A stretch of 13,136 nt of DNA from a virus (lineage: Duplodnaviria; Heunggongvirae; Uroviricota; Caudoviricetes), in IMG/VR virus record IMGVR_UViG_2695420602_000002, one strand, 5' to 3'. Within the stretch, counting starts at the first letter, position 1; every line of letters begins with the position of its first letter. The position numbers and the translations under genes are program-made. Below, one piece after another: positions 1-13,136 of this stretch. Under the pieces are notes generated by a model. It ran no database searches. It had not been told where the DNA came from and saw only the letters and a list, made by a program, of their open reading frames with translations.

Positions 1-1260
1 ATGAAACTTACCGATCTCACGGTACGAAATGCCAAGCCTGATCAGGTCAACAATAAGATTAAGAAACTGAGCGATGGAAACGGGCTATATCTCGCTGTCT
101 ACCCCAATGGGTCGAAGTACTGGCGCTTTCGTAAAGTGATTAACAGTAAAGAAACAACTCGGGCTTTAGGCATCTACCCGGCCATGACACTGGCAGAGGC
201 CAGAAGTGCCAGAGACTCGTATTTGCTTGAGTTATCCAAAGGGATTGATCCCTTGCACACCATAAAGCCTAAAATAACCTCATTTGAGGAAGTTTCCAGA
301 GAGTGGCATACCAGAAAACGTGGATGGAGTGAACCACACGCTAAAAAAGTCCTCAAAGATTTAGAAAATCATATATTCCCTGAAATAGGCAAAAGAGCAG
401 TTAATGAAATAACAACTCAGGATTTATTAACACCCCTTAGAAAAATGGAGGATAAAGGAATACTGGAAACCGCTTCGCGTATCAAACAACGCATGAATGC
501 GATCATGCGCTATGCTGTACAAAGTGGAATAATTAAATATAACCCAGCACAAGAACTGGATGGCGCTTTAGAAACAAATAAAACAAAACACCGCCCCGCC
601 CTTCCTCTTGAACGCTTACCGGAATTATTAGATAAGATTGAAAATTACCATACTCAGTCACACGGGCGGCTATTAACTCAATTAGCTGTAAGACTTAACC
701 TCTTAATTTTTATTCGCTCCAGTGAACTTCGTTTTGCTCGCTGGAATGAAATAGACCTTGATAAATCTCAGTGGATTATTCCAGCGCAACGAGAAGAAGT
801 TAAAGATGTAAGGTTTTCATACCGTGGTGCAAAAATGAAAACGCCTCATACGGTTCCTCTTGCCACACAAGCAATAGAAACTCTAAAGGCAATAAAGGTA
901 ATTTCAGGTGATGAGATATTTGTTTTCCCCGGCGACCACTATCAATCAAAACCGATGAGTGAGAATACAATAAATAAAGCGTTGCGTAATATGGGATATG
1001 ACACGCAATCAGACGTTTGTGGACATGGTTTCCGCGCTATGGCCTGTGCAGCCCTCACGGAGTCTGGAAAGTGGTCAAGAGAAGCAGTAGAGCGTCAGAT
1101 GAGCCACAAAGAAAGAAACTCCGTCAGGGCTGCATATGTCCATCAAGCCGAACATATGGAAGAACGACGCCTGATGTTGCAATGGTGGGGAGACTATCTT
1201 GAGGCCTGCCAAACAGCTTATATTCCACCTTATAAATTTGAATGGTCTTCGAAAAAATGA
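1..1260 (+). CDS. int: P4-type tyrosine integrase (site-specific recombinase, phage integrase family), 419 aa
   Basis: Full-length ORF from the track. N-terminus (MKLTDLTVRNAKP...DGNGLYL) and C-terminal motifs (GHGFRA, HMEERRLMLQWW) match the P4/CP4-type integrase family as recalled. Position next to a tRNA-type att is typical. Confidence 0.9.
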   Translation: MKLTDLTVRNAKPDQVNNKIKKLSDGNGLYLAVYPNGSKYWRFRKVINSKETTRALGIYPAMTLAEARSARDSYLLELSKGIDPLHTIKPKITSFEEVSREWHTRKRGWSEPHAKKVLKDLENHIFPEIGKRAVNEITTQDLLTPLRKMEDKGILETASRIKQRMNAIMRYAVQSGIIKYNPAQELDGALETNKTKHRPALPLERLPELLDKIENYHTQSHGRLLTQLAVRLNLLIFIRSSELRFARWNEIDLDKSQWIIPAQREEVKDVRFSYRGAKMKTPHTVPLATQAIETLKAIKVISGDEIFVFPGDHYQSKPMSENTINKALRNMGYDTQSDVCGHGFRAMACAALTESGKWSREAVERQMSHKERNSVRAAYVHQAEHMEERRLMLQWWGDYLEACQTAYIPPYKFEWSSKK

Positions 1261-1330
1261 TTCTGTGGCGTAGTCAACTTGTGGACACGCCAAAATTTTA
1301 TGCATATAAAACAATTAGATAAAACCGCCA

Positions 1331-1350
1331 AAAGACACAATGTGTCTTTT
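1331..1350 (+). terminator. Weak hairpin downstream of int (AAAGACACA / TGTGTCTTT) followed by a T/A-rich tract
   Basis: 9-nt inverted repeat read directly from the sequence, 70 bp after the int stop. The U-tract is poor, so this is tentative. Confidence 0.25.
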
Positions 1351-1792
1351 ATTAAATAACTTATTGATTTTATTATACAAATCAACCCTTATTCCATTTT
1401 GGAATTAGTGATATTAGTTTCATTCAAAATTTAGCACTAATTTATTGACGAACATCACATTTATAAAGAAAATCTTTATGTTTCCACTTCAATCAGTAGA
1501 CACCTCACCGTTAAATAGAATGACTTTACGATCTACAATAATACACTACCAATCACTATGATATTTTCAAACCGCTTCTAACCGCTTAGAGCTGCTTATA
1601 TTGGTTTGGATTGGGTTCCGAAATTCGATTCATATGAGGACTGAAAAGTCAAATCACATCAATAAGCACCAATTTTACAAAACATCTTACCTTTGATTAT
1701 GATTTCCCTGTCCCGTAAGCCACCGTAAGATCTCATATGATCCACGTTGGGTTGCAAAAAAATGAACGAGCAATATTGTATAGGTGGCTCTT

Positions 1793-2014
1793 ATGTCATT
1801 ACCAACATCATCTAATGAATATAAAACACAGAAACTTATTAGACTTCCAAAGGTTATTGAAATAACTGGAAAGTCAAGAACACGTATTTATGAAGATATG
1901 AAAGCTAACCGCTTCCCTAAAGCAATTAAAACAGGGTCACGTTCAGTCGCCTGGGTTGAACAAGAAATTGCTGAATGGATAGAGGATAAGAAGAAGCAAC
2001 GATTTCAAAACTGA
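1793..2014 (+). CDS. alpA: AlpA-family (prophage CP4-57 regulatory protein-like) HTH transcriptional regulator / excision activator, 73 aa
   Basis: Core LIRLPKVIEITGKSRTRIYEDM...SVAWVEQEIAEWIE closely parallels E. coli AlpA (ILRLPAVIQKTGMARATIYDWL...SVGWIEAEIDEWL, recalled). ATG at 1793 preferred over the GTG at 1784 because AGGTGG lies 5 nt upstream. Confidence 0.88.
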   Translation: MSLPTSSNEYKTQKLIRLPKVIEITGKSRTRIYEDMKANRFPKAIKTGSRSVAWVEQEIAEWIEDKKKQRFQN

Positions 2015-2035
2015 CCATTTATATTTTCAGTCAAT

Positions 2036-2070
2036 AAAAAACGCCTGCGTTTTGCCGAACGAGGCGTTTT
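2036..2070 (+). terminator. Rho-independent terminator after alpA
   Basis: Stem ACGCCT(2041-2046)/AGGCGT(2062-2067) with an inner CGTT/AACG stem, flanked by an A-tract upstream and TTTT downstream. It sits 22 bp after the alpA stop. Confidence 0.6.
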
Positions 2071-2195
2071 AACTGAGTTAATATCTTAACAGGAATCCAG
2101 CAATGCTTTACTTACCGGAACAACACAATTGTATACGTTTTCTTCTGGCGCTTAAAGCGTTTGACAACAGAAGAAAAAATATTCACCGCAGCCTA

Positions 2196-2225
2196 TTGAC
2201 GTCCCACAATGTACTGTCGTATCGT
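2196..2225 (+). promoter_or_regulatory. Candidate sigma70 promoter (TTGACG-N18-TATCGT) driving the leader / small RNA
   Basis: -35 TTGACG at 2196-2201 and -10 TATCGT at 2220-2225, read from sequence. The 18-nt spacer is one longer than optimal. Confidence 0.3.
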
Positions 2226-2231
2226 TTAAGC

Positions 2232-2310
2232 GTTGCCCCTCAATGGGCAATCGGGCGTGGAAACCCGTATCAGTACAAGGCGACATCAGACGCCGATTGC
2301 GTCTTTTTTA
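2232..2310 (+). ncRNA. Candidate small structured RNA / attenuator leader ending in an intrinsic terminator (possible analogue of the P4 immunity CI RNA region)
   Basis: Hairpin TTGCCC-ctcaat-GGGCAA (2233-2250), hairpin CGGG/CCCG (2252-2267), then a terminator hairpin. Lies between alpA and the early operon. No convincing protein in this stretch. Confidence 0.3.
2288..2310 (+). terminator. Rho-independent terminator (AGACGC-cgatt-GCGTCT followed by TTTTTT)
   Basis: Perfect 6-bp GC-rich stem, 5-nt loop and T6 tract read directly. It lies inside the 199-aa track ORF 2103..2702, arguing against that ORF being one gene. Confidence 0.55.
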
Positions 2311-2504
2311 TTGTCGTTAAATCAGTGCCACCATATTCAGCGGAGCAGATCCGCGCAGTATCAATGGTGGCTCTGGCAGGGCAGCTTTCGGGCTGGCCGG
2401 TCTCCTTGTACGCCGGTATTTCCACCCCTGTCAGTGTCACCACCAATCATGAGCGTGGAAACTCCGGTGGTGACTCCTTAATTAAGTACAAGGAGATCAT
2501 CATT

Positions 2505-2702
2505 ATGATGACAACCCCTGCCCCATTGCATCCCCAATTTGTTTGGCTTTTTCTCGCTGTGCGCCGTTCTGACGTGTCCGCACGTCCACACCGTGAAGAA
2601 GTCACCGCCTCAACCTATCAGGCCGCACGCCGCGTTATAGCGCGTGAATTTATCGCCTCTTTTGCCGGTCGTCTGCCGGTTCGCGAGGTGGCCCATGTTT
2701 AA
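2505..2702 (+). CDS. Hypothetical small protein, 65 aa (early operon gene 1)
   Basis: ATG at 2505 preceded by AAGGAG with a 9-nt spacer. C-terminus ...REVAHV is shared with the next gene. Stop overlaps the next start in ATGTTTAA. Confidence 0.5.
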   Translation: MMTTPAPLHPQFVWLFLAVRRSDVSARPHREEVTASTYQAARRVIAREFIASFAGRLPVREVAHV

Positions 2703-2949
2703 CCCCCTTGATAACCAAAAAGCCGCAACACTTAACCCGTTCCATGATAACCACTACGCGCCGCCAGCTTTCATCAAGCCAGGTACAAAAGTAACGGTTG
2801 AAATAGATTCGCGTGAAATGGAGATCGCCATTTTTGCCGCTTACGATTACGGCCTTGACGCTTTGAACGATAAAGGGCGGGACGTCCTGAACCGCTTAAT
2901 TGCTGAATTAAAAGATCGGATAACAGCTCGTGAGGTGGCTCATGTTTAA
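2695..2949 (+). CDS. Hypothetical small protein, 84 aa (early operon gene 2)
   Basis: Internal ATG at 2695 preceded by GAGGTGG. Overlaps the previous stop, suggesting translational coupling. C-terminus ...AREVAHV. Confidence 0.6.
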   Translation: MFNPLDNQKAATLNPFHDNHYAPPAFIKPGTKVTVEIDSREMEIAIFAAYDYGLDALNDKGRDVLNRLIAELKDRITAREVAHV

Positions 2950-3133
2950 ACTGCTTATCACCCTGATTAATCACGAAGCTGGCGACCGGCGCGAACTGGT
3001 TCACATTGGCCGCTATAAAACCCGCGAAGCTGCATGGAAAGACGCGCAGAAAATGGCGTATATCCATAAGAATGCCATCGGCACCGTAACGCATGAATGT
3101 ATTGTGAAAATTGCGGAGGCCGGAAATGTATAA
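2942..3133 (+). CDS. Hypothetical small protein, 63 aa (early operon gene 3; paralog of gene 4)
   Basis: ATG at 2942 preceded by GAGGTGG. Begins MFKLLIT..., similar to the next gene (MYKLFIT...). Stop overlaps the next start. Confidence 0.55.
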   Translation: MFKLLITLINHEAGDRRELVHIGRYKTREAAWKDAQKMAYIHKNAIGTVTHECIVKIAEAGNV

Positions 3134-3320
3134 ACTGTTCATTACCTGCCGTAACGTTATTACTGGCGAAATACAAAATTATCAAAGCACGCAGGAATAT
3201 AAATCATCCGTTAAGGCGGTGAAAGCAGCCTGTAAAATGGCCGATGTTATTACCTGTAACGGGAAATATGCCGATGATAATGAATACACCGTAACAGTCG
3301 GGAAGGTGAAACATGGCTAA
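3126..3320 (+). CDS. Hypothetical small protein, 64 aa (early operon gene 4; paralog of gene 3)
   Basis: ATG at 3126 overlaps the previous stop in ATGTATAA. Shares the M-[FY]-K-L-x-I-T start and a KMA motif with gene 3. Confidence 0.55.
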   Translation: MYKLFITCRNVITGEIQNYQSTQEYKSSVKAVKAACKMADVITCNGKYADDNEYTVTVGKVKHG

Positions 3321-3546
3321 TATCTTTCGCGGTAAAGTAACAAGGAATAAATCTTATCAGGTTTCTGGTTATGCGGTGACGCGTAAAGGTTATACGCGCA
3401 GTGCACAGGTGACGGTTGAGGCGCTTAATCGCGATGATGCAATAATCCGGGCTACGGCCCAGCTACGTTGGGAAGGATTAACGCATTTTAAAGCGCTAAA
3501 GGTGCTGGAAATAATCACGCCATTATTTATTAATCAGAGCCGATAA
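3313..3546 (+). CDS. Hypothetical small protein, 77 aa (early operon gene 5)
   Basis: ATG at 3313 overlaps the previous stop in ATGGCTAA. GGAAGGTG lies upstream. Confidence 0.55.
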   Translation: MANIFRGKVTRNKSYQVSGYAVTRKGYTRSAQVTVEALNRDDAIIRATAQLRWEGLTHFKALKVLEIITPLFINQSR

Positions 3547-3623
3547 CACGTATTTAATCTGAGTCAGTTTAAACCGAATTAATTTTCGGGGGATGCCTTC
3601 ATCCGTCGAAAGAGGACTATGCC

Positions 3624-3887
3624 ATGACAACAAGTAATCATATTCAGAGTGTTAATCCGTCTCACCTCAGTATTGAGAATTATCACAAACTGAATCGCGC
3701 GAGGAATGTCGCATTTCAGATGCATTTACATATTCGCCAGTGTGAAGCTAACGCGATGCCACTCTTATGGATACCGGATATTTTCAGTTATATCAGTGAA
3801 GATATTTCATCAGTACTACAGGAAGTTAAACGCCTGGGGATTTGTGACAAATATCTGGGACATGCTGTACAAGAAGACAAAGAGTGA
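3624..3887 (+). CDS. Hypothetical protein, 87 aa, immediately upstream of the primase (position analogous to P4 epsilon/orf151; function unknown)
   Basis: ATG at 3624 with AAGAGGA 7 nt upstream. The alternative-frame ORF 3706..3903 lacks an RBS. Confidence 0.55.
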   Translation: MTTSNHIQSVNPSHLSIENYHKLNRARNVAFQMHLHIRQCEANAMPLLWIPDIFSYISEDISSVLQEVKRLGICDKYLGHAVQEDKE

Positions 3888-3926
3888 AATAAAAGCGCCG
3901 TGATGAGCGGCGCTTAAGGATTTTAT

Positions 3927-6596
3927 ATGAACAGAAAAGATCTACGCCCCGAAATCATAAAACGACTGGTGCATGATTACCAGTTTAAAGAGCAGAACGG
4001 CTATCTGCGCTCAGGTATTTGCCCTGAATGTAACAAGAAAGAACTCTTTACCAGCATGGAAAATCCTTGGGTGCTGCGCTGTGGCCGGGAAAATAATTGC
4101 GGCGCTGATCTGTCGGTAAAATCGCTCTATCCTGAATTATTTAACTCATGGTCAGATCGCTATGAGAGCACGCCTGAGCAGCCTTTTGCCGCTGCGGAAG
4201 CCTATCTGAGAGAAGCCAGAGGGCTGGATACTACCTGCTTAAAGGGCTGCTATACGCAGGAAAGCTACCATAAGGGCGGCATGGGAAGCGCAACGGTTCG
4301 CTTTGCCCTGTCTGATGGTATCTGGTGGGAGCGGATTATCGACAAGCCAGAACGCTTTGATCGAAAGGCTAACTTCCACGGTAAGTACGCCGGTCACTGG
4401 TGGGTTCCGCCAGCGCTGGATCTGGCTAAAGTCAGTTGTATCTGGCTAACTGAGGGGATTTTTGACGCCATTAGCCTTTATCAGAACGGCACCCCTGCCG
4501 TTTCCATTATGACTGCCGGAAACTACCCGGAAGCCGCGCTTAAAGCGCTTGCTGAACAATTCCAGGGCAAAGAAAAGCCGTTTCTTGTCTGGGCGCTGGA
4601 CAATGGGAAAGCAGGGGAAACAGCCATACGTCGCCATGTGGCGCGGAGCCGTGAACAAGGCTGGAAAGCCGTTGCCGCACTTCCTTCACAGGGGAGCAAT
4701 AAAGCTGACTGGAACGATCTCCACCTTACCGGAAAGCTGACCAGACGACACCAGAAAGAGTACCGCTATTACGGCGATCTGTTGCTGGCGGAAAGCGCCC
4801 GAGATAAGGCGCTTCGGATGTTTGAACATAATGAACGCCCTGAGTTTCACTTCGAATACGGGAACTGCGTGTACTGGTTTAAGCTGGACATTGAGCGCCA
4901 TATGAAGGCCGTTGAGCGTATCCTTAACGATAAAAAAGTTAATGATGAACGTGAAGCCAGAAGTATTGCATTGAAAGAGTCTGGAGCAATTAAGGAAATA
5001 GCCAATTGTCACCCCGCACCGCTGTATTTTATGCGTTCAGAAGTTACAGACGAGTCCTGGTATTATTTTCGCATCGCCTTTCCAGGCAATACACCCGCAG
5101 TGAAAGACTCCTTTACCGCGGGGCAGATCTCTTCTGCGTCTGAGTTTAAAAAGCGTCTCCTCCATGTGGCAAAAGGTGCGCTCTATACCGGAACCAGCCA
5201 GCAGCTCGATGGTCTGATTAAAAAGGATCTGCCCCGGATCAAAGAGGTCAGGACGCAGGACTTTATTGGGTATAACAGGGACTGGCGGGCATGGGTATTC
5301 AATAAGCTGGCGATACATAACGGGAAGGTCTACTCCTTGAACAGCGAAGATTACTTTGAGATTGGTGGGATGAATATCAAGACACTGAGCCGATCCCCGT
5401 TAATCAATATCAATTCTGATGATAATTCGCTTTCGTCAGGCTGGGCCGATGATATCTGGACGGCTTTTGGTGAAAATGGCTATGTCGCGCTGGCATTCTG
5501 GCTGGGAACATTCTTCGTTGAACAGATACGCGAACAGCAGGCCAGCTTTCCCTTTCTGGAGATTATCGGTGAACCGGGAACAGGTAAATCCACGCTGATT
5601 GATTTTCTCTGGCGGCTCTGTGGCAGGGACAGCTATGAGGGAATTGACCCTTCAAAGGGTTCTGTTGCGGGCATTTATCGTAACTTCGCCCAGGTCTCAA
5701 ACCTTCCCGTCGTGCTGCTTGAAGGCGATCGCGCCCAAGACACGAAGAAGCTGCGCGGCTTTGACTTCGATGAGCTAAAACCGCTCTACAACGGGCGCGG
5801 ATTACGGGCGATTGGTGTTAAGACCAACAACAATGAAACCAGAGAGCCGCCATTCAGGGGCAGCATTGTCATCGCGCAGAATGCCACCGTTAACGCCTCA
5901 CCTGCGATACTGGAACGTATTATCCATGTGTTTACGGATAAACGCCGTCAGTCATCGCTGACCAGGGCGGCGGCTGAACGCCTTGAGCGTCTGCCGGTCG
6001 ATCAGGTATCTGGTTTTATGATCCGGGCGGTATGCAGGGAAAGCGCAGTATTGTCGATTATTCAGGAGGTGTATGAGGCCGAAAAAATCAGGCTGGAACA
6101 ACACTCTGAAATTCGTCATATCCGAATTGCCAAAAATCATGCCCAGATGATTGCATGTGTAAGGGCGCTGACCTGTGTTCTGGATATTCCCGCAGAACGC
6201 CTCGATCGCACCTGTGAACAGCTTACTGTGATGGCGGTGGAGCGGGTTAAATCGCTGGAAGCGGATATCCCTGTGGTTCGTGAGTTCTGGGATGCCTTTG
6301 ATTATCTGAATAGCCTGGAGCGTTTCGGCGTCAACCATTTTGGGAAAGAGAATCGCGACGAGATCGCCATTAACTTCCCTCACCTGATGCGTATAGCTGC
6401 TATGCAGCGTGTAAATATTCCCCCGGCGAAAGAAATTCAGGATTACCTGAAAAACGGGCGTATGCGGCCGTGTACGGGCCAGAAGACGGTAAGAAGTGAG
6501 GTTTCCAGACTGGCAAATCAGGGGCGTGGAGAGGCTGGCCCGAAAGAGCCTGAGCAGGTGAAATGCTGGATTTTTAAAGTGCCGGCCGCTCAGTAG
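3927..6596 (+). CDS. Bifunctional DNA primase-helicase (P4 alpha-like): N-terminal Zn-ribbon, TOPRIM-like region, C-terminal P-loop NTPase; 889 aa
   Basis: Cys cluster CPEC...RCGRENNCG near the N-terminus. TOPRIM-like IWLTEGIFDAISL and VWALDNGKAGE. Walker A GEPGTGKS and Walker B-like VVLLEGD. RBS AAGGA 8 nt upstream. Confidence 0.82.
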   Translation: MNRKDLRPEIIKRLVHDYQFKEQNGYLRSGICPECNKKELFTSMENPWVLRCGRENNCGADLSVKSLYPELFNSWSDRYESTPEQPFAAAEAYLREARGLDTTCLKGCYTQESYHKGGMGSATVRFALSDGIWWERIIDKPERFDRKANFHGKYAGHWWVPPALDLAKVSCIWLTEGIFDAISLYQNGTPAVSIMTAGNYPEAALKALAEQFQGKEKPFLVWALDNGKAGETAIRRHVARSREQGWKAVAALPSQGSNKADWNDLHLTGKLTRRHQKEYRYYGDLLLAESARDKALRMFEHNERPEFHFEYGNCVYWFKLDIERHMKAVERILNDKKVNDEREARSIALKESGAIKEIANCHPAPLYFMRSEVTDESWYYFRIAFPGNTPAVKDSFTAGQISSASEFKKRLLHVAKGALYTGTSQQLDGLIKKDLPRIKEVRTQDFIGYNRDWRAWVFNKLAIHNGKVYSLNSEDYFEIGGMNIKTLSRSPLININSDDNSLSSGWADDIWTAFGENGYVALAFWLGTFFVEQIREQQASFPFLEIIGEPGTGKSTLIDFLWRLCGRDSYEGIDPSKGSVAGIYRNFAQVSNLPVVLLEGDRAQDTKKLRGFDFDELKPLYNGRGLRAIGVKTNNNETREPPFRGSIVIAQNATVNASPAILERIIHVFTDKRRQSSLTRAAAERLERLPVDQVSGFMIRAVCRESAVLSIIQEVYEAEKIRLEQHSEIRHIRIAKNHAQMIACVRALTCVLDIPAERLDRTCEQLTVMAVERVKSLEADIPVVREFWDAFDYLNSLERFGVNHFGKENRDEIAINFPHLMRIAAMQRVNIPPAKEIQDYLKNGRMRPCTGQKTVRSEVSRLANQGRGEAGPKEPEQVKCWIFKVPAAQ

Positions 6597-6611
6597 CAGA
6601 GGAACAATAGT

Positions 6612-7592
6612 ATGACCATTAAAAAACGGGCTGACGGGCGTTATGAAGTCGATATTTATGCCAGAGGGCGCAGCGGTAAGCGCTTTCGCAGGATTTTTGA
6701 CAGAAAGCAGGAGGCAGCGCTCTTTGAACGGTATGTTATGGCGAATGCCGATAAAAAAGAGTGGTTGGGCGCCAGCACCGATCGGCGTACTCTCAGCGAG
6801 CTGCTAAACATCTGGTGGCTGCTGTATGGCCGGACGCTGGAGAACGGAAACGCCGAAAAACGACACCTAGATAAAACGATCAGAGCCCTGGGCAACCCGG
6901 CAGTTAACCGGCTGACTAAACGAATCATCGCGCAGCATCGCAGCGAGCGGCTGGATTCAGGGATCAGCACGGCCACCGTCAACCGTGATATATATCGCCT
7001 TTCGGGTATGTTCAGCGCCCTGATAAAACTGGATGAATTCAAGGCTGATAACCCCTGTAAAGGGCTGGAGCCATTGAGGGAGAAACCAGCAGCAATGACC
7101 TACCTTACTAAATCGGAAATCAGTCGATTATTGAATACCCTTACAGGTGACGATCGCCGTGTTGCTCTTTTGTGCCTCAGCACCGGCGCACGCTGGGGAG
7201 AAGGCAGCACACTGCGGGGAGAGCAGATTAACCACGGACGCGTAACTTTTCTTAAAACCAAAAACGGGAAGAGGCGCACGATCCCAATATCGGATGAACT
7301 GGAAAAAGAGATCAAAACCCGCGATTGCGGGCCGCTGTTCAGCGTTGACTATGAAGCCTTTTGCGGGCGGCTTAGGGAGGTTAAGCCGGACCTGCCGCGC
7401 GGGCAGGCTACGCATGTGCTTCGCCATACGTTTGCAAGCTGGTTCATGATGAACGGGGGCAATATTATCGCCTTACAACAAATTCTTGGTCACGCCAGTA
7501 TCCAGCAGACGATGGTTTATGCGCATGTTGCGCCTGACTATCTGCAACACGCCGTTTCACTCAATCCCCTTTCTGGCGGAATCAGCCTCTGA
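6612..7592 (+). CDS. Second tyrosine recombinase / integrase-family protein with an arm-type N-terminal domain, 326 aa
   Basis: C-terminal catalytic signature HVLRHTFAS ... LGHASIQQTMVYAHV (R, H-x-x-R, H, Y). GAGGAA RBS upstream. Starts 16 bp after the primase stop on the same strand. Confidence 0.78.
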   Translation: MTIKKRADGRYEVDIYARGRSGKRFRRIFDRKQEAALFERYVMANADKKEWLGASTDRRTLSELLNIWWLLYGRTLENGNAEKRHLDKTIRALGNPAVNRLTKRIIAQHRSERLDSGISTATVNRDIYRLSGMFSALIKLDEFKADNPCKGLEPLREKPAAMTYLTKSEISRLLNTLTGDDRRVALLCLSTGARWGEGSTLRGEQINHGRVTFLKTKNGKRRTIPISDELEKEIKTRDCGPLFSVDYEAFCGRLREVKPDLPRGQATHVLRHTFASWFMMNGGNIIALQQILGHASIQQTMVYAHVAPDYLQHAVSLNPLSGGISL

Positions 7593-7595
7593 ATG

Positions 7596-7620
7596 ACCGG
7601 CTGACGGGCCGGTTTACCCC
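7596..7620 (+). terminator. Possible terminator hairpin after the recombinase (ACCGGC-tgacgg-GCCGGT, then TT..CCCCTTT)
   Basis: 6-bp GC stem starting 4 bp after the stop codon. The U-tract is interrupted, so support is modest. Confidence 0.3.
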
Positions 7621-7888
7621 TTTCCCTCGTAGCGTAGATATATTCCCTTCGTTTTTAGCTGTTCTGCATTACGCCCTCATCGCCCGGATCACCGTCGTTT
7701 CTGACCGTTCTGCAGCACGGTTAAAAATGACTGTACTCGATGTATGGCCAGCACTGCCGTAAGTGGCAGTGTTTGCCGGAGTGGAGCCATTGCCGGACAT
7801 TTGGCGAAATGACAAAACATTTAACAGAAAAGAAGCCTTTTTTAAAAAAAAGCAGATTTTCCAGAATTTGAGGGGGGGGATCGGAAAC

Positions 7889-8150
7889 GGGTTACAAAAG
7901 TTACAAAGTAAAGATATAAATATATTATATTGATTTATATGTAATTTTCACCAACTTGGAAAAGTTACAACCGGGTTACGATCGGGTTACTCTGTAACCT
8001 TATCTAAAGTTACAACTTAGATATTTAACTGATTGATTTTATTGGGTGTAACTTTAATGGAACCTTTTGTAACCTCACAAAGGTTACAAATTTAATTAAT
8101 ATAAATCATTGAGTTAAGCATATTATTTCACCCCCGTAACCGTTGTAACC
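7889..8150. repeat. Iteron array in both orientations (core GGTTACAA / TTGTAACC) around an AT-rich stretch; putative origin of replication
   Basis: At least nine copies of the GTTAC(A) core. They include tandem GTTACAAA x2 (7891-7907), palindrome GGTTAC-tct-GTAACC (7985-7999), and 11-bp inverted copies GGTTACAAAAG (7890-7900) and CTTTTGTAACC (8064-8074). AT-rich segment at 7905-7950 and a G8 tract at 7872-7879. Confidence 0.5.
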
Positions 8151-8580
8151 GACTTCCGTACCTCCCCTCAGTTTTTCAGTAAAACAGCTCTTTTTCTGTT
8201 AACCCTTTTTTCACACTTCACTTTCAAATCAGCGTGCACCGAGGGCAATAAATCAACATTGTGCAACACGAAAACAGCGTGCATAACTGGCCCGGGCGCA
8301 GCCGGAGTTTGGCTCTTTTTAAGGTGAAAATGATCGCTGCAAAATCACCGCACAAATTTGCACGCTAATGCACAATTTTTTTGATGGTACTTTTGCCACT
8401 CCAGCCCAGACGGGGCACGGCTTTGGCCGGACTGCACATTTGCACAAAAAAGCGGGCTTTCTGCGTGCGGGCGAGGCGGGGGAACAAGCGCGCGCTGAGA
8501 GGTGAGACAGGATGGCATATCCTGATTATTCTCCGGCTTGATGTGATGCGTTTTATAGATGGGTAATGCAGGAAGGTGGA

Positions 8581-8614
8581 TAATGAAAACACCTCTCAGC
8601 GTGGCTCTGAGAGG
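8581..8614 (-). terminator. Intrinsic terminator-like hairpin on the minus strand (CCUCUCAG-loop-CUGAGAGG followed by UGUUUUC)
   Basis: 8-bp stem (plus strand 8592-8599 / 8607-8614) with a 7-nt loop. The U-rich tract exists only on the minus-strand transcript. About 170 bp downstream of the minus-strand RHH ORF. Confidence 0.4.
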
Positions 8615-8784
8615 CTTATATTGCATCTGGTAGTTGATCACATCTTTTTGTGTTAATGCATCAATTTTTTTGAAGGGAACGGCACCCATCAGGCTAGATC
8701 GTGAAGGATTCAAGGGCAGATCTGTACCATATGAGCGTATGCGGCTGGATGTGTAATACACCCGCTCGTACGGGCTGGGCGGGG

Positions 8785-8994
8785 TTATATTCGATGTTTC
8801 CGGCAGGAATCGATCTCAGGAACGGCTATTCGCCCGATCCCTTTAGCCAGCAGACCCGCACCGGCCAGTTCGATCAGGCAACGACAATAGCTCGCACCAC
8901 TTCGCTTGCTCATCGCCACTATGTACTGATCCAGTTCATTGGGGATCCTCAGTGATTTCAGCACCGACCTGTTATTTCTGGGTAATGTGGGCAT
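8785..8994 (-). CDS. Arc/MetJ-like ribbon-helix-helix DNA-binding protein candidate, 69 aa, divergent from the late-like operon
   Basis: Strong SD (AAGGAGGAA) 4 nt before the ATG. Predicted beta-strand/helix pattern RSVLKSLRIPNELDQYIVAMSKRSGASYCRCLIELAG parallels P22 Arc (FNLRWPREVLDLVRKVAEENGRSVNSEIYQRV, recalled). Codon usage is plausible. Confidence 0.45.
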   Translation of the reverse strand: MPTLPRNNRSVLKSLRIPNELDQYIVAMSKRSGASYCRCLIELAGAGLLAKGIGRIAVPEIDSCRKHRI

Positions 8995-9058
8995 AGTTCC
9001 TCCTTTGGCCTGTCTGCATTATCTGCGCAAACCGTCCGGGACGAATGATGCTTATAGG

Positions 9059-9076
9059 TGTAGTACACCCCTGACA
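9059..9076 (+). promoter_or_regulatory. TGT-N12-ACA dyad (P2/P4 late-promoter activator-site pattern) upstream of the 245-aa gene
   Basis: TGTagtacacccctgACA read directly, ~75-90 bp upstream of the ATG at 9150. Ogr/Delta-family activators bind such dyads around -55 (established). One chance match in ~150 bp is not negligible. Confidence 0.3.
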
Positions 9077-9149
9077 ACCTTAACGGTGCGACTGGATTTA
9101 TTTTTCCTGCAATCATTTTCCCATCGCAATAATCACAAGGTGCAGGACG

Positions 9150-9887
9150 ATGACACAAAACAACATGCAGGCATTACTCGTGAGTTACCAGCAGCAGAAA
9201 GAGCTATTTGACCGTGCCTATAAGTCTCTTTCAGACGAAGAGAAGGTGCTTGCCAACCTGAGCGAGACAAAGCGAAAAATAGAAGTGGAGTCAAACGCGG
9301 GCCATAGTGCCGGTGACTGGGGGCTTGCGTTGCTCAGGAACGGAGGCGTTGAAAGTGCGGAAACAGATGGTGCGGCACTGTCCGCAGCGCAGGTGATGGT
9401 AAAGCTTCAAAAAATCCAGGAGTTGATTGAATCCCAGAGCCTGACGGTGCTTGATCTACGGATTCAAACCGCAAGCCAGGCACGCCAGACGAAAGAGGCT
9501 TATTTTAAACTTTCGTCAGTGATTGCGGATTCTTTTCTCCAGTCTCTTAAAGACGACCTCAGAGCGCTGGTTGGTGAGCGATTGTCTGTCGTCATTGGGC
9601 TTTATTCTCTGGCAGGATTAAACACCAGTGATGCAGAAAGAATATTATCAGATGAATTTATGAAGTTACTTCGCGTTGACTCCAGAACGGTTGTACGTGA
9701 ATTATTGAGTGATGCTGACAGTAGTCTTTTCAGCGATCCTGTACTGGCATTTTTCCCCGGTGCATTGTCTGGCAGTATTAACCATGCGTTAAATAACAGT
9801 CCTTCGCCAATTCAGGAATCTAAAGCACGCTCTGATATGGATTATAAGAAGAGACTGGCGGCGGGTATTGAGCCATTCAGAAAATAG
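9150..9887 (+). CDS. Hypothetical coiled-coil-rich protein, 245 aa; possibly a Sid/Psu-like or scaffold-like capsid-associated protein (positional inference only)
   Basis: Good ORF with a Q/E/K/L-rich helical composition. Immediately upstream of the capsid-like gene and Ogr. Length similar to P4 Sid (244 aa, recalled), but no sequence match could be verified. Confidence 0.65.
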   Translation: MTQNNMQALLVSYQQQKELFDRAYKSLSDEEKVLANLSETKRKIEVESNAGHSAGDWGLALLRNGGVESAETDGAALSAAQVMVKLQKIQELIESQSLTVLDLRIQTASQARQTKEAYFKLSSVIADSFLQSLKDDLRALVGERLSVVIGLYSLAGLNTSDAERILSDEFMKLLRVDSRTVVRELLSDADSSLFSDPVLAFFPGALSGSINHALNNSPSPIQESKARSDMDYKKRLAAGIEPFRK

Positions 9888-9924
9888 TCTTGATTAAATT
9901 CATACCATCAATGGAGTTTTTTAT

Positions 9925-10962
9925 ATGAAAAACAGCACCAGAGAAAAATATGATGCATGGTGCTTATTGCAGGCATCACAAAATAAGCTGAACAGTTCAA
10001 AGCTGGATGGGATTTCCTTTTCACTTACACCATCTGCATCGCAAACTATTGTTGATAAGATGCAGGAAAGCGCAGATTTACTTAAACAGATAAATATTCT
10101 GGAAGTGGACGAGCAGGAAGAAGAGTCGATCGGGCTTACATCTGTACCGCTGTCCAGTACGAACAACTCAACGACAGAGGCACGCCAGCCCGTACAAGGT
10201 TGTACAGCAGAGACTGACCGATACCGTTGTGAGCAGGTGAATACTGATACCTATGTTTCTTATGAGAAACTGGATCAGTGGGCGGGCCTTGATAATTTCT
10301 TCGGGCATATGGAGAGCCAGATTTATCGCCGTCAGGCACTGGATGTAATACTGACTGGCATTTATGGCACTCACCATGCGGCTAAATCAGATATTACTGC
10401 TAACCCGTTGCTTCAGGATGTTAATACCGGCTGGTTAGAAAAGTGGCGGCGAAATGCCTCAGCCCGCGTGGTTAATGGTGTATCGGTCAGTCGCCGCAAT
10501 AACGCCAATATTATCGAGTCCAGCGGGGATTACGGTACTATTGACTCTCTGACGATGGAGGCATATCAGGAATTATTAGATCCGTGGCACACCGGGGATT
10601 CAGATCTTGTTGTTATTTGTAATCTCTCATTGATTACAGGAAAGTATTATCCCTTTGTTAATAATCTTGGAGTGACACCAAATAAAGAGTTGCTCGCTTT
10701 AGCATTACAAAATGAGAACCGTCAGATCGGAGGGCTTCCCGTTTGCCCAATTCCGTTCTTTCCTCAAAATGCGATGCTGGTTACTTCGCTTGATAATCTG
10801 TCTTTGTACTGGCAAACAGGAACACACCGCCGCAAAATCTCGGAAGAACCGGAATTTAACCGCGTCTCAACCTATGATTCGTGGAATAACGCCTATGTGG
10901 TCGAAGACTACGGCAAGGGATGCCTGATTGAAGGGATTATCTGGGGTAACGATCAGCGTTAA
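9925..10962 (+). CDS. P2 gpN-family major capsid protein homolog, 345 aa
   Basis: Segments match gpN as recalled from memory: SQTIVDKMQESADLLKQINI (gpN TQTLMNTMQESSDFLTRINI), YRCEQVNTDTYVSYEKLDQWA (gpN YECDQINFDFYIRYKTLDLWA), LLQDVNTGWLEKWR, GDSDLVVI, HRRKISEEPEFNRV...YVVEDYGKGCLIE. The function needs a search to confirm. Confidence 0.6.
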   Translation: MKNSTREKYDAWCLLQASQNKLNSSKLDGISFSLTPSASQTIVDKMQESADLLKQINILEVDEQEEESIGLTSVPLSSTNNSTTEARQPVQGCTAETDRYRCEQVNTDTYVSYEKLDQWAGLDNFFGHMESQIYRRQALDVILTGIYGTHHAAKSDITANPLLQDVNTGWLEKWRRNASARVVNGVSVSRRNNANIIESSGDYGTIDSLTMEAYQELLDPWHTGDSDLVVICNLSLITGKYYPFVNNLGVTPNKELLALALQNENRQIGGLPVCPIPFFPQNAMLVTSLDNLSLYWQTGTHRRKISEEPEFNRVSTYDSWNNAYVVEDYGKGCLIEGIIWGNDQR

Positions 10963-11030
10963 CCCGTCTCCGGTCTGGTTCAGTATGGTATTATTATTGC
11001 GATACTAACCAGACCAGAGGAGAAGCGCAT

Positions 11031-11264
11031 ATGGCTATGCGTTGCCCTCAATGCCATGCAACGGCGAAGACAAGAACCAGCGTTGAACTCAGCGACCTGG
11101 TAAGAAAAAGCTATCATCAGTGCCAGAACCTTAAGTGTGGCCTGACGTTTATCTCTATGACAGAGATTTACTGCACGCTTAACCGTCCCGATTTGCCATC
11201 ACATACCCTTGAAGCCCTTCCACCGGACAAGTTCCCGATCAGCCACCAGGAAAAAACGCTGTAA
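11031..11264 (+). CDS. ogr: Ogr/Delta-family zinc-finger late-gene transcriptional activator, 77 aa
   Basis: C5-x2-C8-x22-C31-x4-C36 spacing with the SYHQCQNLKCGLTF motif (P2 Ogr RYHQCQNVNCSATF, recalled). RBS GAGGAGAAG upstream. Confidence 0.85.
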   Translation: MAMRCPQCHATAKTRTSVELSDLVRKSYHQCQNLKCGLTFISMTEIYCTLNRPDLPSHTLEALPPDKFPISHQEKTL

Positions 11265-11271
11265 ATACCCA

Positions 11272-11300
11272 TGCAGCCCCTATCTATAGGGGTTGCAGTG
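11272..11300 (+). terminator. Hairpin after ogr (GCAGCCCCTAT / ATAGGGGTTGC, one G-U) with a weak U tail
   Basis: 11-12 bp stem starting 8 bp after the ogr stop. The tail GTGCTTTAACA has only a short U-run. Confidence 0.35.
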
Positions 11301-11352
11301 CTTTAACAGCGGTGATAGATATCGCTAATAACAGGCCAGTAGTACGCTATCA

Positions 11353-11374
11353 AACGGGTACAATAACGGGTACA
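11353..11374. repeat. Tandem direct repeat AACGGGTACA x2 (candidate integrase arm-type sites in the attR arm)
   Basis: Two perfect 10-bp copies 12 bp apart, about 60-80 bp from the tRNA-like core. An IHF-like site TATCAATAAGTTA lies at 11403-11415. Confidence 0.3.
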
Positions 11375-11428
11375 TCTAACAGCCAATAAAACTATAATCA
11401 ATAAATATCAATAAGTTAAATTAAAAGA

Positions 11429-11448
11429 CGATTCCTGCAGGGACACCA
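11429..11448 (+). other. attR core: 3'-terminal fragment of a tRNA gene (T-loop/T-stem/acceptor/CCA), most like tRNA-Arg argW
   Basis: CGATTCCTGCAGGGACACCA ends in ACCA with T-stem and acceptor 3' halves but no 5' half, so it is a repeat copy and not a gene. The recalled argW 3' end is GGTTCGATTCCTGCAGGGGACACCA. Confidence 0.55.
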
Positions 11449-11838
11449 GATACCCTTCAAACGAAATCTACCTTCACCCCGTAAAAGATAGGTTTGGCAG
11501 CACACTTGCCTTATATCTACTCATTTTTACTGCAACAGGTTGAAATCTCAGCACTGTCAGAAAGCGCTGATGACTAAACAGCCCTGGGCCGGGCGATGTA
11601 ACCATCACACAGAATCCTGATAGCGAAATATGGCGTGACTCGATACTTCACTCCGCAATGCATTCCTTGATGAATTCGCAGGACCGTGATACACGGGACA
11701 GGTCGCTGAATGACGACAATGTCCTGGAAATCAGCGAACCGCGCATCTGAAGTACATTTGAGCGACTGTACCAGAACATGAATGAGGCGTTTAGATTAGG
11801 TGATTATTAGCAGGGCTAAGCACTTTAGTATTATTATT

Positions 11839-11877
11839 TTCCGGTTGAGGGATAGGGAGATATCGACAACAACCGGA
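11839..11877 (-). terminator. 11-bp perfect inverted repeat (TTTTCCGGTTG ... CAACCGGAAAA) just downstream of cscB; candidate terminator or protein-binding site
   Basis: Perfect IR with a 17-nt spacer, 12 bp beyond the cscB stop, followed on the minus strand by an AU-rich tail. Confidence 0.3.
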
Positions 11878-11888
11878 AAAGTTTACGT

Positions 11889-13136
11889 CTATATTGCTGA
11901 AGGTACAGGCGTTTCCATAACTATTTGCTCGCGTTTTTTACTCAGGAAGAAAATGCCAAATAGCAACATCAGGCAGACAATACCCGAAATTGCGAAGAAA
12001 ACTGTCTGGTAGCCTGCGTGGTCAAAGAGTATCCCAGTCGGCGTTGAAAGCAGCACAATCCCAAGCGAACTGGCAATTTGAAAACCAATCAGAAAGATCG
12101 TCGACGACAGGCGCTTATCAAAATTTGCCACGCTGTATTTGAAGACGGATATGACACAAAGTGGAACCTCAATGGCATGTAACAGCTTCACTAATGAAAT
12201 AATCCAGGGGTTAACGAACAGCGCGCAGGAAAGGATACGCAACGCCATAATCACAACACCGATAAGTAATGCATTTTTTGGCCCTACCCGATTCACAAAG
12301 AAAGGAATAATCGCCATGCATAGCGCTTCGAGTACCACCTGGAATGAGTTGAGATAACCATACAGGCGCGTTCCTACATCGTGTGATTCGAATAAACCTG
12401 CATAAAAGACAGGAAAAAGTTGTTGATCAAAAATGTTATAGAAAGACCACGTCCCCACAATAAATATGACGAAAACCCAGAAGTTTCGATCCTTGAAAAC
12501 TGCGATAAAATCCTCTTTTTTTACCCCTCCCGCATCCGCCGCTACGCACTGGTGATCCTTATCTTTAAAACACATGTTGATCATCATAAATACAGCGCCA
12601 AATAGCGAGACCAACCAGAAGTTGATATGGGGACTGATACTAAAAAATATGCCGGCAAAGAACGCGCCAATAGCATAGCCAAAAGATCCCCAGGCGCGCG
12701 CTGTTCCATATTCGAAATGAAAATTTCGCGCCATTTTTTCGGTGAAACTGTCAAGCAAACCGCATCCCGCCAGATACCCCAGGCCAAAAAAGAGCGCCCC
12801 CAGAATTAGACCTACAGAAAAATTGCTTTGCAGTAACGGTTCATAAACGTAAATCATAAACGGTCCGGTCAAGACCAGGATGAAACTCATACACCAGATG
12901 AGCGGATTCTTCAGACCGAGTTTATCCTGAACGATGCCGTAGAACATCATAAATAGAATGCTGGTAAACTGGTTGACCGAATAAAGTGTACCTAATTCCG
13001 TCCCTGTCAACCCTAGATGTCCTTTCAGCCAAATAGCGTATAACGACCACCACAGCGACCAGGAAATAAAAAAGAGAAATGAGTAACTGGATGCAAAACG
13101 ATAGTACGCATTTCTGAATGGAATATTCAGTGCCAT
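11889..13136 (-). CDS. cscB: Sucrose:H+ symporter (LacY-family MFS oligosaccharide permease), 415 aa
   Basis: Full ORF whose start is the last base of the window. The sequence (MALNIPFRNAYYRFASSYSFLFF...) matches E. coli CscB as recalled and shows LacY-family motifs and multiple hydrophobic spans. Confidence 0.85.
   Translation of the reverse strand: MALNIPFRNAYYRFASSYSFLFFISWSLWWSLYAIWLKGHLGLTGTELGTLYSVNQFTSILFMMFYGIVQDKLGLKNPLIWCMSFILVLTGPFMIYVYEPLLQSNFSVGLILGALFFGLGYLAGCGLLDSFTEKMARNFHFEYGTARAWGSFGYAIGAFFAGIFFSISPHINFWLVSLFGAVFMMINMCFKDKDHQCVAADAGGVKKEDFIAVFKDRNFWVFVIFIVGTWSFYNIFDQQLFPVFYAGLFESHDVGTRLYGYLNSFQVVLEALCMAIIPFFVNRVGPKNALLIGVVIMALRILSCALFVNPWIISLVKLLHAIEVPLCVISVFKYSVANFDKRLSSTIFLIGFQIASSLGIVLLSTPTGILFDHAGYQTVFFAISGIVCLMLLFGIFFLSKKREQIVMETPVPSAI

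Follow-up and report, generated by a model that had tools for sequence, protein, structure and literature searches.

A second, P2-type integrase in a P4-like phage satellite and its possible action on helper prophages

Why does a phage satellite with an integrase at its end carry a second, complete integrase gene directly behind its replication gene? The question is raised by IMG/VR virus record IMGVR_UViG_2695420602_000002, a 13,136-nt stretch of Caudoviricetes DNA (the window) that consists of a P4-like phage satellite of ~11.4 kb and its chromosomal flank. The satellite is inserted at the tRNA-Arg gene argW by a P4-type integrase, int1. An earlier note on this DNA described a second tyrosine recombinase, catalytically complete and located after the primase-helicase gene and before a repeat array, and proposed that it could be a Xer-like enzyme for multimer resolution, a second integration module or a recombinase fold recruited to origin recognition. 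Our analysis places this recombinase, named int2 here, with near certainty in the P2/HP1 family of phage integrases of the arm-binding type, and neither a P2-style attP nor a Cox-type excision factor is detected for it in cis. It is possible, if doubtful, that a family of P4-like satellites carries int2 as an orphan helper integrase that is exchanged to match helper lineages and that excises, or controls att recombination of, P2-like helper prophages.

Identity, distribution and history of int2

The protein encoded by int2 matches the Pfam families Int_N (PF24624; E 1e-31, 110 bits with a cut-off of 27) and Phage_integrase (PF00589; E 1e-19, 71 bits with a cut-off of 27.1) as well as PHROG 1 'integrase' (E 1e-81), and its N-terminus also matches PHROG 11531 and 22824. 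In the PDB, it matches P2 integrase (5c6k; E 9e-86, residues 48-324) and the catalytic domain of HP1 integrase (1aih; E 9e-43). The residues R194 (in GARWGE), K217, H268-x-x-R271, H294 and Y303 align with those of P2 Int and make up the full R-K-H-x-x-R-H-Y set, while residues 1-55 align without gaps to P2-type arm-binding N-termini at 64-73% identity and are predicted to form an arm-binding domain. Over its full 326 aa, int2 shares 82-83% identity with its counterparts in the P2-like phages SEN4/SEN5 and phiT5282H. The catalytic completeness, the arm-type N-terminus and the position between the primase-helicase gene and an iteron array were described correctly in the earlier note; int1 is a different enzyme, of the P4 type.

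The note had also asked that the protein be placed among the tyrosine recombinase families, and the profile scores place it with the P2/HP1 phage integrases rather than with the Xer or integron enzymes. The NCBIfam profiles for XerC, XerD and XerA give 72-85 bits (38-85 bits when XerS is included), compared with cut-offs of 220-335, and the integron integrase profiles TIGR02249 and NF011946 give 64.8 and 43.8 bits, compared with cut-offs of 265 and 435, respectively. That int2 might be a decayed duplicate of int1, which the note had named as a finding that would speak against its view, is contradicted by the different family of int1 and by the purifying selection on int2. The dN/dS ratio of int2 is 0.07 between the window and its relative L010 and ~0.1 among the relatives L010, L011 and L013, which differ by 4% at synonymous sites; these values are similar to that of the primase. 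Int2 is a real gene rather than a chance open reading frame (ORF), and its product is an ordinary member of the P2 integrase family in an unusual context.

The context is that of close coupling to the replication gene. The ATG of int2 is at 6612 and the TAG of the primase-helicase gene ends at 6596, which leaves a gap of 15 nt; in relatives, this gap is 2-21 nt. The earlier note had put the start of int2 16 bp after the primase gene, and the span of 3927-7592 that it gave for the recombinase covers the primase gene as well as int2. With a ribosome-binding site but no terminator-like site in the 15-nt spacer, the two genes are probably transcribed together.

A P2-type integrase gene is found 3' of the replication module in close relatives from Kluyvera, Izhakiella, a metagenomic circle and Ca. 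Erwinia, whose primases are 87-92% identical to that of the window, and also in the more distant satellites L022 (primase identity 69%) and L002, L020, L024 and L030 (~60%). It is even present in L026, whose replicase is unrelated. The slot and its tight coupling to the primase gene are thus kept across primases that are only 60% identical, and with a different replicase. Two close relatives, L019 and L023, possess the same primase family and iterons and have no int2. All free-living hosts examined have an unbroken int2 reading frame, and a frameshift is found only in the decaying genome of the symbiont Ca. Erwinia dacicola. These results show that int2 is an accessory insertion between the replication gene and the origin.

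The alleles in this slot vary greatly. By sequence identity, the int2 proteins of the window and the L010 group are like those of SEN5/T5282H (83-87%), that of L024 is SEN5-like (75%) although the L024 primase is 78% identical to the L002 primase, those of L002 and L020 resemble P88_4B11/Chuche (79-82%) and that of L022 resembles P88 (81%), while the types are mutually 47-54% identical. The comparison thus resolves at least three integrase types in the slot, each nearest to a different lineage of P2-like phages (75-87%), and their distribution is incongruent with the primase tree. The domains are also mosaic: the core-binding domain of L010 int2 is 92% identical to that of SEN5 and its arm domain 73%. 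At the DNA level, the window and L010 are 80% identical in int2, 87% in the primase gene and 83% in the downstream non-coding DNA.

Attachment sites and directionality factor

Members of the integrase cluster at 83% identity to int2 have the location expected of a P2 integrase: they are encoded at the edge of complete P2-like prophages that are inserted beside cpxP, with C and cox as neighbors and Cox encoded two genes from int. In these helper phages, attP is directly 3' of the int stop codon, and its tandem TTGTCTACA sites are followed by a core located in the cpxP terminator and then by a second tandem arm pair. A scan for P2-style attP, i.e., two tandem arm pairs of one motif that are 100-320 bp apart, recovered four of four helper attPs and detected none in the six satellite loci scanned (the window and five others). 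Comparison with the helper attP regions by blastn and blastn-short found nothing in the satellite. The helper arm motif TGTCTACA occurs five times in the window, compared with 7.4 expected, and never in tandem, while a pattern search found no helper core sequence in the window. For a Cox-like protein, no PF10743 match was found in any scanned ORF. Judged from these scans, int2 has no P2-style attP and no Cox-type excision factor in cis.

In this respect, int2 differs from the integrases that it resembles. P2 (5c6k, 5dor) and HP1 (1aih) integrases share its sequence features, Int_N and Phage_integrase, but each is the sole integrase of a complete temperate phage and works with IHF and Cox on its own attP, whereas int2 is a second integrase with no cognate site. 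Likewise, the integrases of SEN4/SEN5 (Senquatrovirus) and phiT5282H (Novemvirus) have the three-domain layout and the catalytic residues of int2, but they are followed by attP and located beside C and cox at the prophage border, whereas int2 is internal, after the primase gene and without attP; the arm domain of int2 is, moreover, only 73% identical to theirs. The satellite is bordered on its left by argW and int1 and on its right by attR (11429-11448), and every integrated copy that reaches the left end of the element has a P4-type integrase there, with a tRNA gene adjoining where detected.

Several repeats were considered as int2 sites and rejected. The repeats at 7646-7673 and 7692-7719 were discarded because the first is not conserved in L010 and the second falls within a ~90-nt element that helper phages have at positions other than att. 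Tandem copies of TGTGGACA with an 11-bp period, identical to an arm site of some P2-like integrases, are found directly 3' of the int1 stop codon in L002, L024 and L019. They track the argW-type int1 module, and L020, which has the int2 of L002, has none; the tandem, which forms a hairpin followed by a T-run, is probably the terminator of int1, but it may also be a coincidence or a binding site for a P2-type integrase. Sequence comparison revealed no conserved dif/cer/lox-like candidate that accompanies int2 in relatives, although short core sites could escape it.

These results bear on the suggestion that int2 is a second integration module, which would insert the satellite elsewhere, e.g., at the helper attB beside cpxP, by means of an unconventional or diverged attP. 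The protein does fit: int2 belongs to a family of integrating phages and is complete, purifying selection acts on it, and its nearest relatives insert P2-like prophages beside cpxP. The site does not. Neither tandem arm sites nor a core or two-arm architecture is found in the six satellites, a gene for a Cox-like factor is missing, all integrated copies examined have int1 at the element end and int2 inside, and the arm sites with which the helper gene overlaps at its 3' end are gone from the C-terminal tail of L002 int2. Insertion is by int1, and we consider a second integration module unlikely.

Possible action on helper attachment sites

Arm-binding integrases need both arm and core sites. 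Because the satellite has none, the sites available to int2 would be those of the matching helper. In P2, Cox represses Pc, which drives C and int, and is also the directionality factor for excision (PMC3936717); since Cox represses the operon that encodes C and Int, a derepressed P2 prophage is expected to possess Cox and little new Int. We tentatively propose that int2 works in trans, its targets being the att sites of the matching helper, and that its most likely effect is helper excision. Upon satellite activation, int2 would be made together with the epsilon-like anti-repressor and the primase and would act on helper attL/attR or attP. Most likely, it would supply the Int that the derepressed P2-like prophage lacks and without which Cox cannot excise the prophage, and the helper could then excise and amplify to the benefit of the satellite.

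Besides the co-expression layout, the missing attP in cis, insertion by int1 only, the purifying selection and the biology of P2, we count for this proposal the helper-matched alleles and the DNA that satellites share with presumed helpers, i.e., cos and hok/mok. In the phage collection, the cos region of the window matches only SEN4/SEN5 and one Klebsiella record, so that cos and int2, by their similarity, both point to SEN4/SEN5. The end of the SEN4/SEN5 genome record falls exactly opposite window position 8469, and GGCGAGGCGGGGG at 8470 is similar to the P2 cohesive end; the phiT5282H record does not end at cos, and SEN5 was used in its place. In L002, the satellite of STEC367, a hok/mok cassette at 11693-12121 is 86-89% identical to Xuanwuvirus (P88-like) phages and ~82% identical to Stx phages. 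The same Xuanwuvirus phages carry the nearest relatives of L002 int2, and the cassette shows DNA exchange between the L002 satellite lineage and its presumed helpers. An E. coli-wide search with L002 int2 did not separate the helper types.

Several points weigh against action in trans. The arm domain of int2, at only 73% identity to that of SEN5, differs at residues that possibly contact DNA, and its arm specificity may differ as well. The match between alleles and helpers could be a neutral by-product of gene conversion between int genes during co-infection, and int2 is more diverged between the window and L010 (80% DNA identity) than are its flanks (83-87%). Classical P4 exploits P2 without excising it, so that the function would be dispensable, which fits the relatives that have no int2. 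The complete genome of E. coli KCJ3K291, which carries an identical satellite, has no second P2-type int detectable at the DNA level and hence no resident cognate helper. A short core-only site in the satellite could escape sequence analysis. Finally, the analysis is purely computational, and the action in trans is what we infer from it.

A role of int2 in multimer resolution, in the manner of Xer/cer, Cre/lox or ResD/rfsF of the F plasmid, would convert multimers into the monomer circles preferred by P2-type packaging. Resolvase genes are found near plasmid origins, and P2/P4 packaging prefers monomer circles. In every arrangement seen, int2 is between the replication module and cos, and a 12.2-kb circular form of a relative exists. 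Int2 shares with XerC/XerD, Cre and ResD the catalytic fold of tyrosine recombinases and the position near a replication origin, but these enzymes lack its arm-binding N-terminal domain, which is absent from simple resolvases, and int2 is outside the Xer family. The window and L024, which have the same int2 type, share no DNA 3' of int2 until the flank of the origin, and an allele swap without a co-swapped site would break a system that acts in cis. The Xer membership suggested by the earlier note is thus refuted, no site is found for the resolution role, and this role itself is improbable.

We give equally little credence to the possibility that int2 is an inherited leftover of P2-like ancestry, in which the ogr-attP-int block of a P2-like genome lost attP while int, which would do little or nothing today, stayed intact mainly through repeated gene conversion from co-infecting helpers. 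Capsid, ogr, cos and even the primase family are common to the satellites and P2-like phages, and the L026 order int2-cos-ogr, with ogr on the minus strand, mirrors the helper order int-attP-ogr, also with ogr on the minus strand. The mosaic domains of L010, the absence of int2 from some relatives and its frameshift in the decaying symbiont genome also fit such a remnant. A dN/dS ratio of ~0.1 among satellite copies that are only 4% apart at synonymous sites does not, nor do the intact reading frame in free-living hosts and the conserved slot and coupling described above.

Int2 may, as a further alternative, be an interference factor that binds helper att sites and blocks or misdirects helper integration or excision; it would have the same targets as in the proposed helper excision, with the opposite sign. 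The evidence that helper att sites are the only available substrates applies here as well, and accessory genes of P4-like satellites are often anti-phage (PMC9122126, PMC13586616). A binding decoy, however, needs no full catalytic set under purifying selection, and harm to the lytic growth of the helper would also harm the satellite; we consider interference very improbable.

Iterons, replication gene and the satellite at argW

The coordinates of the features are given in Table 1.

Table 1. Features of the window and, in the last row, tandem repeats next to int1 in the window and other satellites.
Feature	Coordinates	Strand	Evidence or remark
int1, P4-type integrase, inserts element at tRNA-Arg argW	1..1260	+	Pfam PF13356 + PF22022 + PF00589
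Epsilon-like derepression (anti-repressor) protein, upstream, same strand	3624..3887	+	Pfam PF25738 'Derepression', E 6e-20
Toprim primase fused to initiator helicase, likely reader of GGTTACA iterons, 889 aa	3927..6596	+	Toprim_2/3, PHROG 1139
Spacer with GAGGA ribosome-binding site, no terminator	6597..6611	+	Sequence and terminator scan
int2, intact P2/HP1-family arm-binding tyrosine integrase, 326 aa	6612..7592	+	Domains, structures, catalytic set
GC hairpin CCGGC-N6-GCCGG followed by TTT, weak terminator-like	7597..7615	+	Just 3' of int2
Conserved structured element of ~90 nt	7690..7780	+	Fold z-score -3.05
Replication-origin-like array between G-run and C-run: ~12 iterons (GGTTAC/GTTACAA), present in both orientations and surrounding AT-rich DNA	7873..8167	.	
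cos (packaging) site region	8341..8511	.	Similar to DNA beside portal gene of P2-like prophages; helper genome ends = 8469/8470
Helper-exploitation module: 245-aa protein, P2-family major capsid homologue (9925-10962), Ogr/Delta zinc finger (11031-11264)	9150..11264	+	
attR core, argW 3'-end repeat, right border of satellite	11429..11448	+	CGATTCCTGCAGGG common to tRNA-Arg 3' end
Tandem TGTGGACA copies	L002 2650-2668; L024 2730-2748; L019 2375-2393; looser version in window ~1268-1290		

The repeat array that the earlier note placed after int2 is real, although it begins ~290 bp 3' of the gene rather than directly behind it. GGTTACA occurs six times, compared with 1.3 expected, and GTTACAA seven times, compared with 1.8 expected, nearly all within 7890-8150. 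The array is kept in all relatives of the primase lineage of the window, whether int2 is present or absent. In L019 (from Salmonella, 65% primase identity) and L023 (60%), which have no int2, the GGTTACA array is directly 3' of the primase gene and its flanks match those of the window lineage, with a G-run and then CGGAAACGGGTTACAA. The iterons are unchanged even where the int2 proteins of the satellites share only 38-53% identity in the arm domain and 30-39% in the core-binding domain. In L026, a different replicase (DUF927) is accompanied by different iterons, TGGGACAAC (TGGGACA), that are located 5' of int2, with cos following int2.

An AlphaFold model of the 889-aa replication protein (mean pLDDT 84) matches, by Foldseek, SCCmec Cch (5dgk; E 2e-13), the SaPIbov1 initiator Rep (8tch; E 2e-10) and DnaG primase domains; from these matches, the protein is apparently a self-loading initiator helicase with a primase fused to it. 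On these four independent lines, i.e., the relatives that lack int2, the invariance of the iterons, L026 and the helicase fold of the model, the GGTTACA iterons belong to the primase-helicase and not to int2, and int2 is consequently an insertion between a rep gene and its origin. That int2 recognizes the origin or initiates replication by binding these iterons, a role suggested only by its position between primase gene and iterons, is contradicted by all four lines and is excluded. For the same reasons of presence without int2 and invariance with int2 type, the iterons were rejected as int2 arm sites, for which their likeness to the helper GTCTACA and their period of 10-11 bp had made them candidates. 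The distant primase relatives L014-L016 (Alkalilimnicola, Natronospirillum and Marinobacterium) have neither int2 nor recognizable iterons and are uninformative.

The likeness to the pri-rep-ori modules of SaPIs and to SCCmec Cch concerns the 889-aa neighbor of int2, whose predicted initiator-helicase fold they share, rather than int2 itself; these modules have no int2-like insertion between rep and ori. The SaPI iterons lie just 3' of the rep gene, which is the same placement as here. The family of this primase-helicase also occurs in phages: in L021 (7001-9658), a member that is 57% identical is the replication gene of a complete Salmonella P2-like prophage and stands where the gene A protein usually is, and GGTTACA iterons were not detected there.

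Between int2 and the array, the stem of the hairpin at 7597..7615 is kept in relatives despite changed bases, and the terminator scan did not call it. The ~90-nt element is 84-85% identical to P2-like prophage DNA 3' of gene A and between genes U and G. It was also found at 3992-4081 of L006, 4555-4644 of L004 and 19166-19232 of L007, with base changes that preserve the hairpin. Rfam gave no match in 6600-9150, which includes the element. Possible identities for the element are a terminator, a small RNA and a common boundary at which cassettes are exchanged.

The gene order of the satellite is int1, AlpA, an Ash-family protein, the epsilon-like protein, the primase-helicase, int2, the iterons, cos, a 245-aa protein, the capsid homologue and Ogr/Delta. 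Int1 comprises the Pfam domains Arm-DNA-bind_3, Phage_int_M and Phage_integrase. The 'Icd-like'/Ash ORF (2103-2702) overlaps Rfam matches to isrK (57 bits) and C4 antisense RNA (79 bits) at 2232-2309 and 2360-2447, an immunity RNA region typical of P4-like elements, and a GC hairpin is found inside the 39-nt gap between the epsilon-like and primase genes. The capsid homologue (345 aa; PF05125, E 6e-99) also scores above the cut-off of NCBIfam TIGR01551, and Ogr/Delta matches PF04606 (E 1e-15). The 245-aa protein, in the position of Sid, has no family match in Pfam, NCBIfam or PHROG, and Psu was not found among the window ORFs. Relatives carry the trio of 245-aa protein, capsid and Ogr in varying order, which differs from the canonical sid-delta-psu set of P4.

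The features by which P4-like satellites are recognized are therefore partly present (integrase, AlpA, Ash/epsilon, Delta/Ogr and cos) and partly absent (a PF03288-type alpha primase, Sid and Psu), the primase being of the Toprim_2/3 type with no match to PF03288. Compared with the layout of P4, the element is alike in its P4-type integrase, AlpA, Ash, epsilon-like protein, C4/isrK RNAs, Ogr/Delta and P2-type cos, and differs by its Toprim_2-type primase, the missing Psu and its P2-family capsid gene.

The genome of E. coli KCJ3K291 (L001) matches window positions 1-11448 at 100%, and there the tRNA-Arg gene argW is directly left of int1; a tRNA-Arg gene also adjoins int1 in STEC367. The right end, attR, is marked by a 14-nt copy of the tRNA 3' end at 11429-11442, and the match to KCJ3K291 stops at 11448. 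Tandem arm-type repeats of int1, ACGGGTACA, are visible close to both element borders, the likely sites being 11353-11375 in the window and ~5925-5990 in L001. ACGGGTACA and the origin iteron ACGGGTTACA differ by one inserted T; their likeness is probably accidental, since the iterons stay the same in satellites that have other int1 types.

Beyond attR, on the right, is a sucrose permease gene, annotated as an oligosaccharide MFS transporter, as the window (11449-13136) runs into the sucrose (csc) locus, while KCJ3K291 (L001 from 17450) continues into the prophage integrase gene intS. KCJ3K291 is the sole complete genome with an identical satellite, and the different flank indicates that the window is from another strain background; it also illustrates that the argW site can hold elements in tandem, the satellite and then intS. 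A 12.2-kb circular relative represents the excised form; in it, the capsid gene and int1 flank the int1 junction. L011, a close relative of the window satellite, is a 12,723-bp metagenomic contig that is terminally redundant with a 516-bp overlap and has a unit of 12,207 bp, and is thus circular or concatemeric; the 'Bacillota bacterium' label of its metagenome-assembled genome almost certainly reflects wrong binning.

In its published form, the core gene set of P4-like satellites includes one integrase, and where two were present, one was discarded as belonging to a neighbor (PMC8628076; PMC10085698). In the literature searched, we found no description of a conserved, P2-type second integrase in P4-like satellites that is of helper type and lacks its site. 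Satellites are known to hijack the capsids, regulators and packaging of their helpers. If int2 indeed excises helper prophages or controls their att recombination, this would be a new way in which a satellite manipulates its helper. By acting on helper att sites, satellites could control the timing with which P2-like prophages exit the chromosome, which would help to explain the mobilization of P2-like prophages that are non-inducible, and the alleles of int2 would make up a natural set of integrase variants matched to known att sites. If int2 is instead an inherited remnant, it would be evidence that a reduced P2-like phage was the ancestor of this capsid-encoding branch of P4-like satellites. 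Under both readings, the iterons are assigned to the primase-helicase and not to the recombinase.

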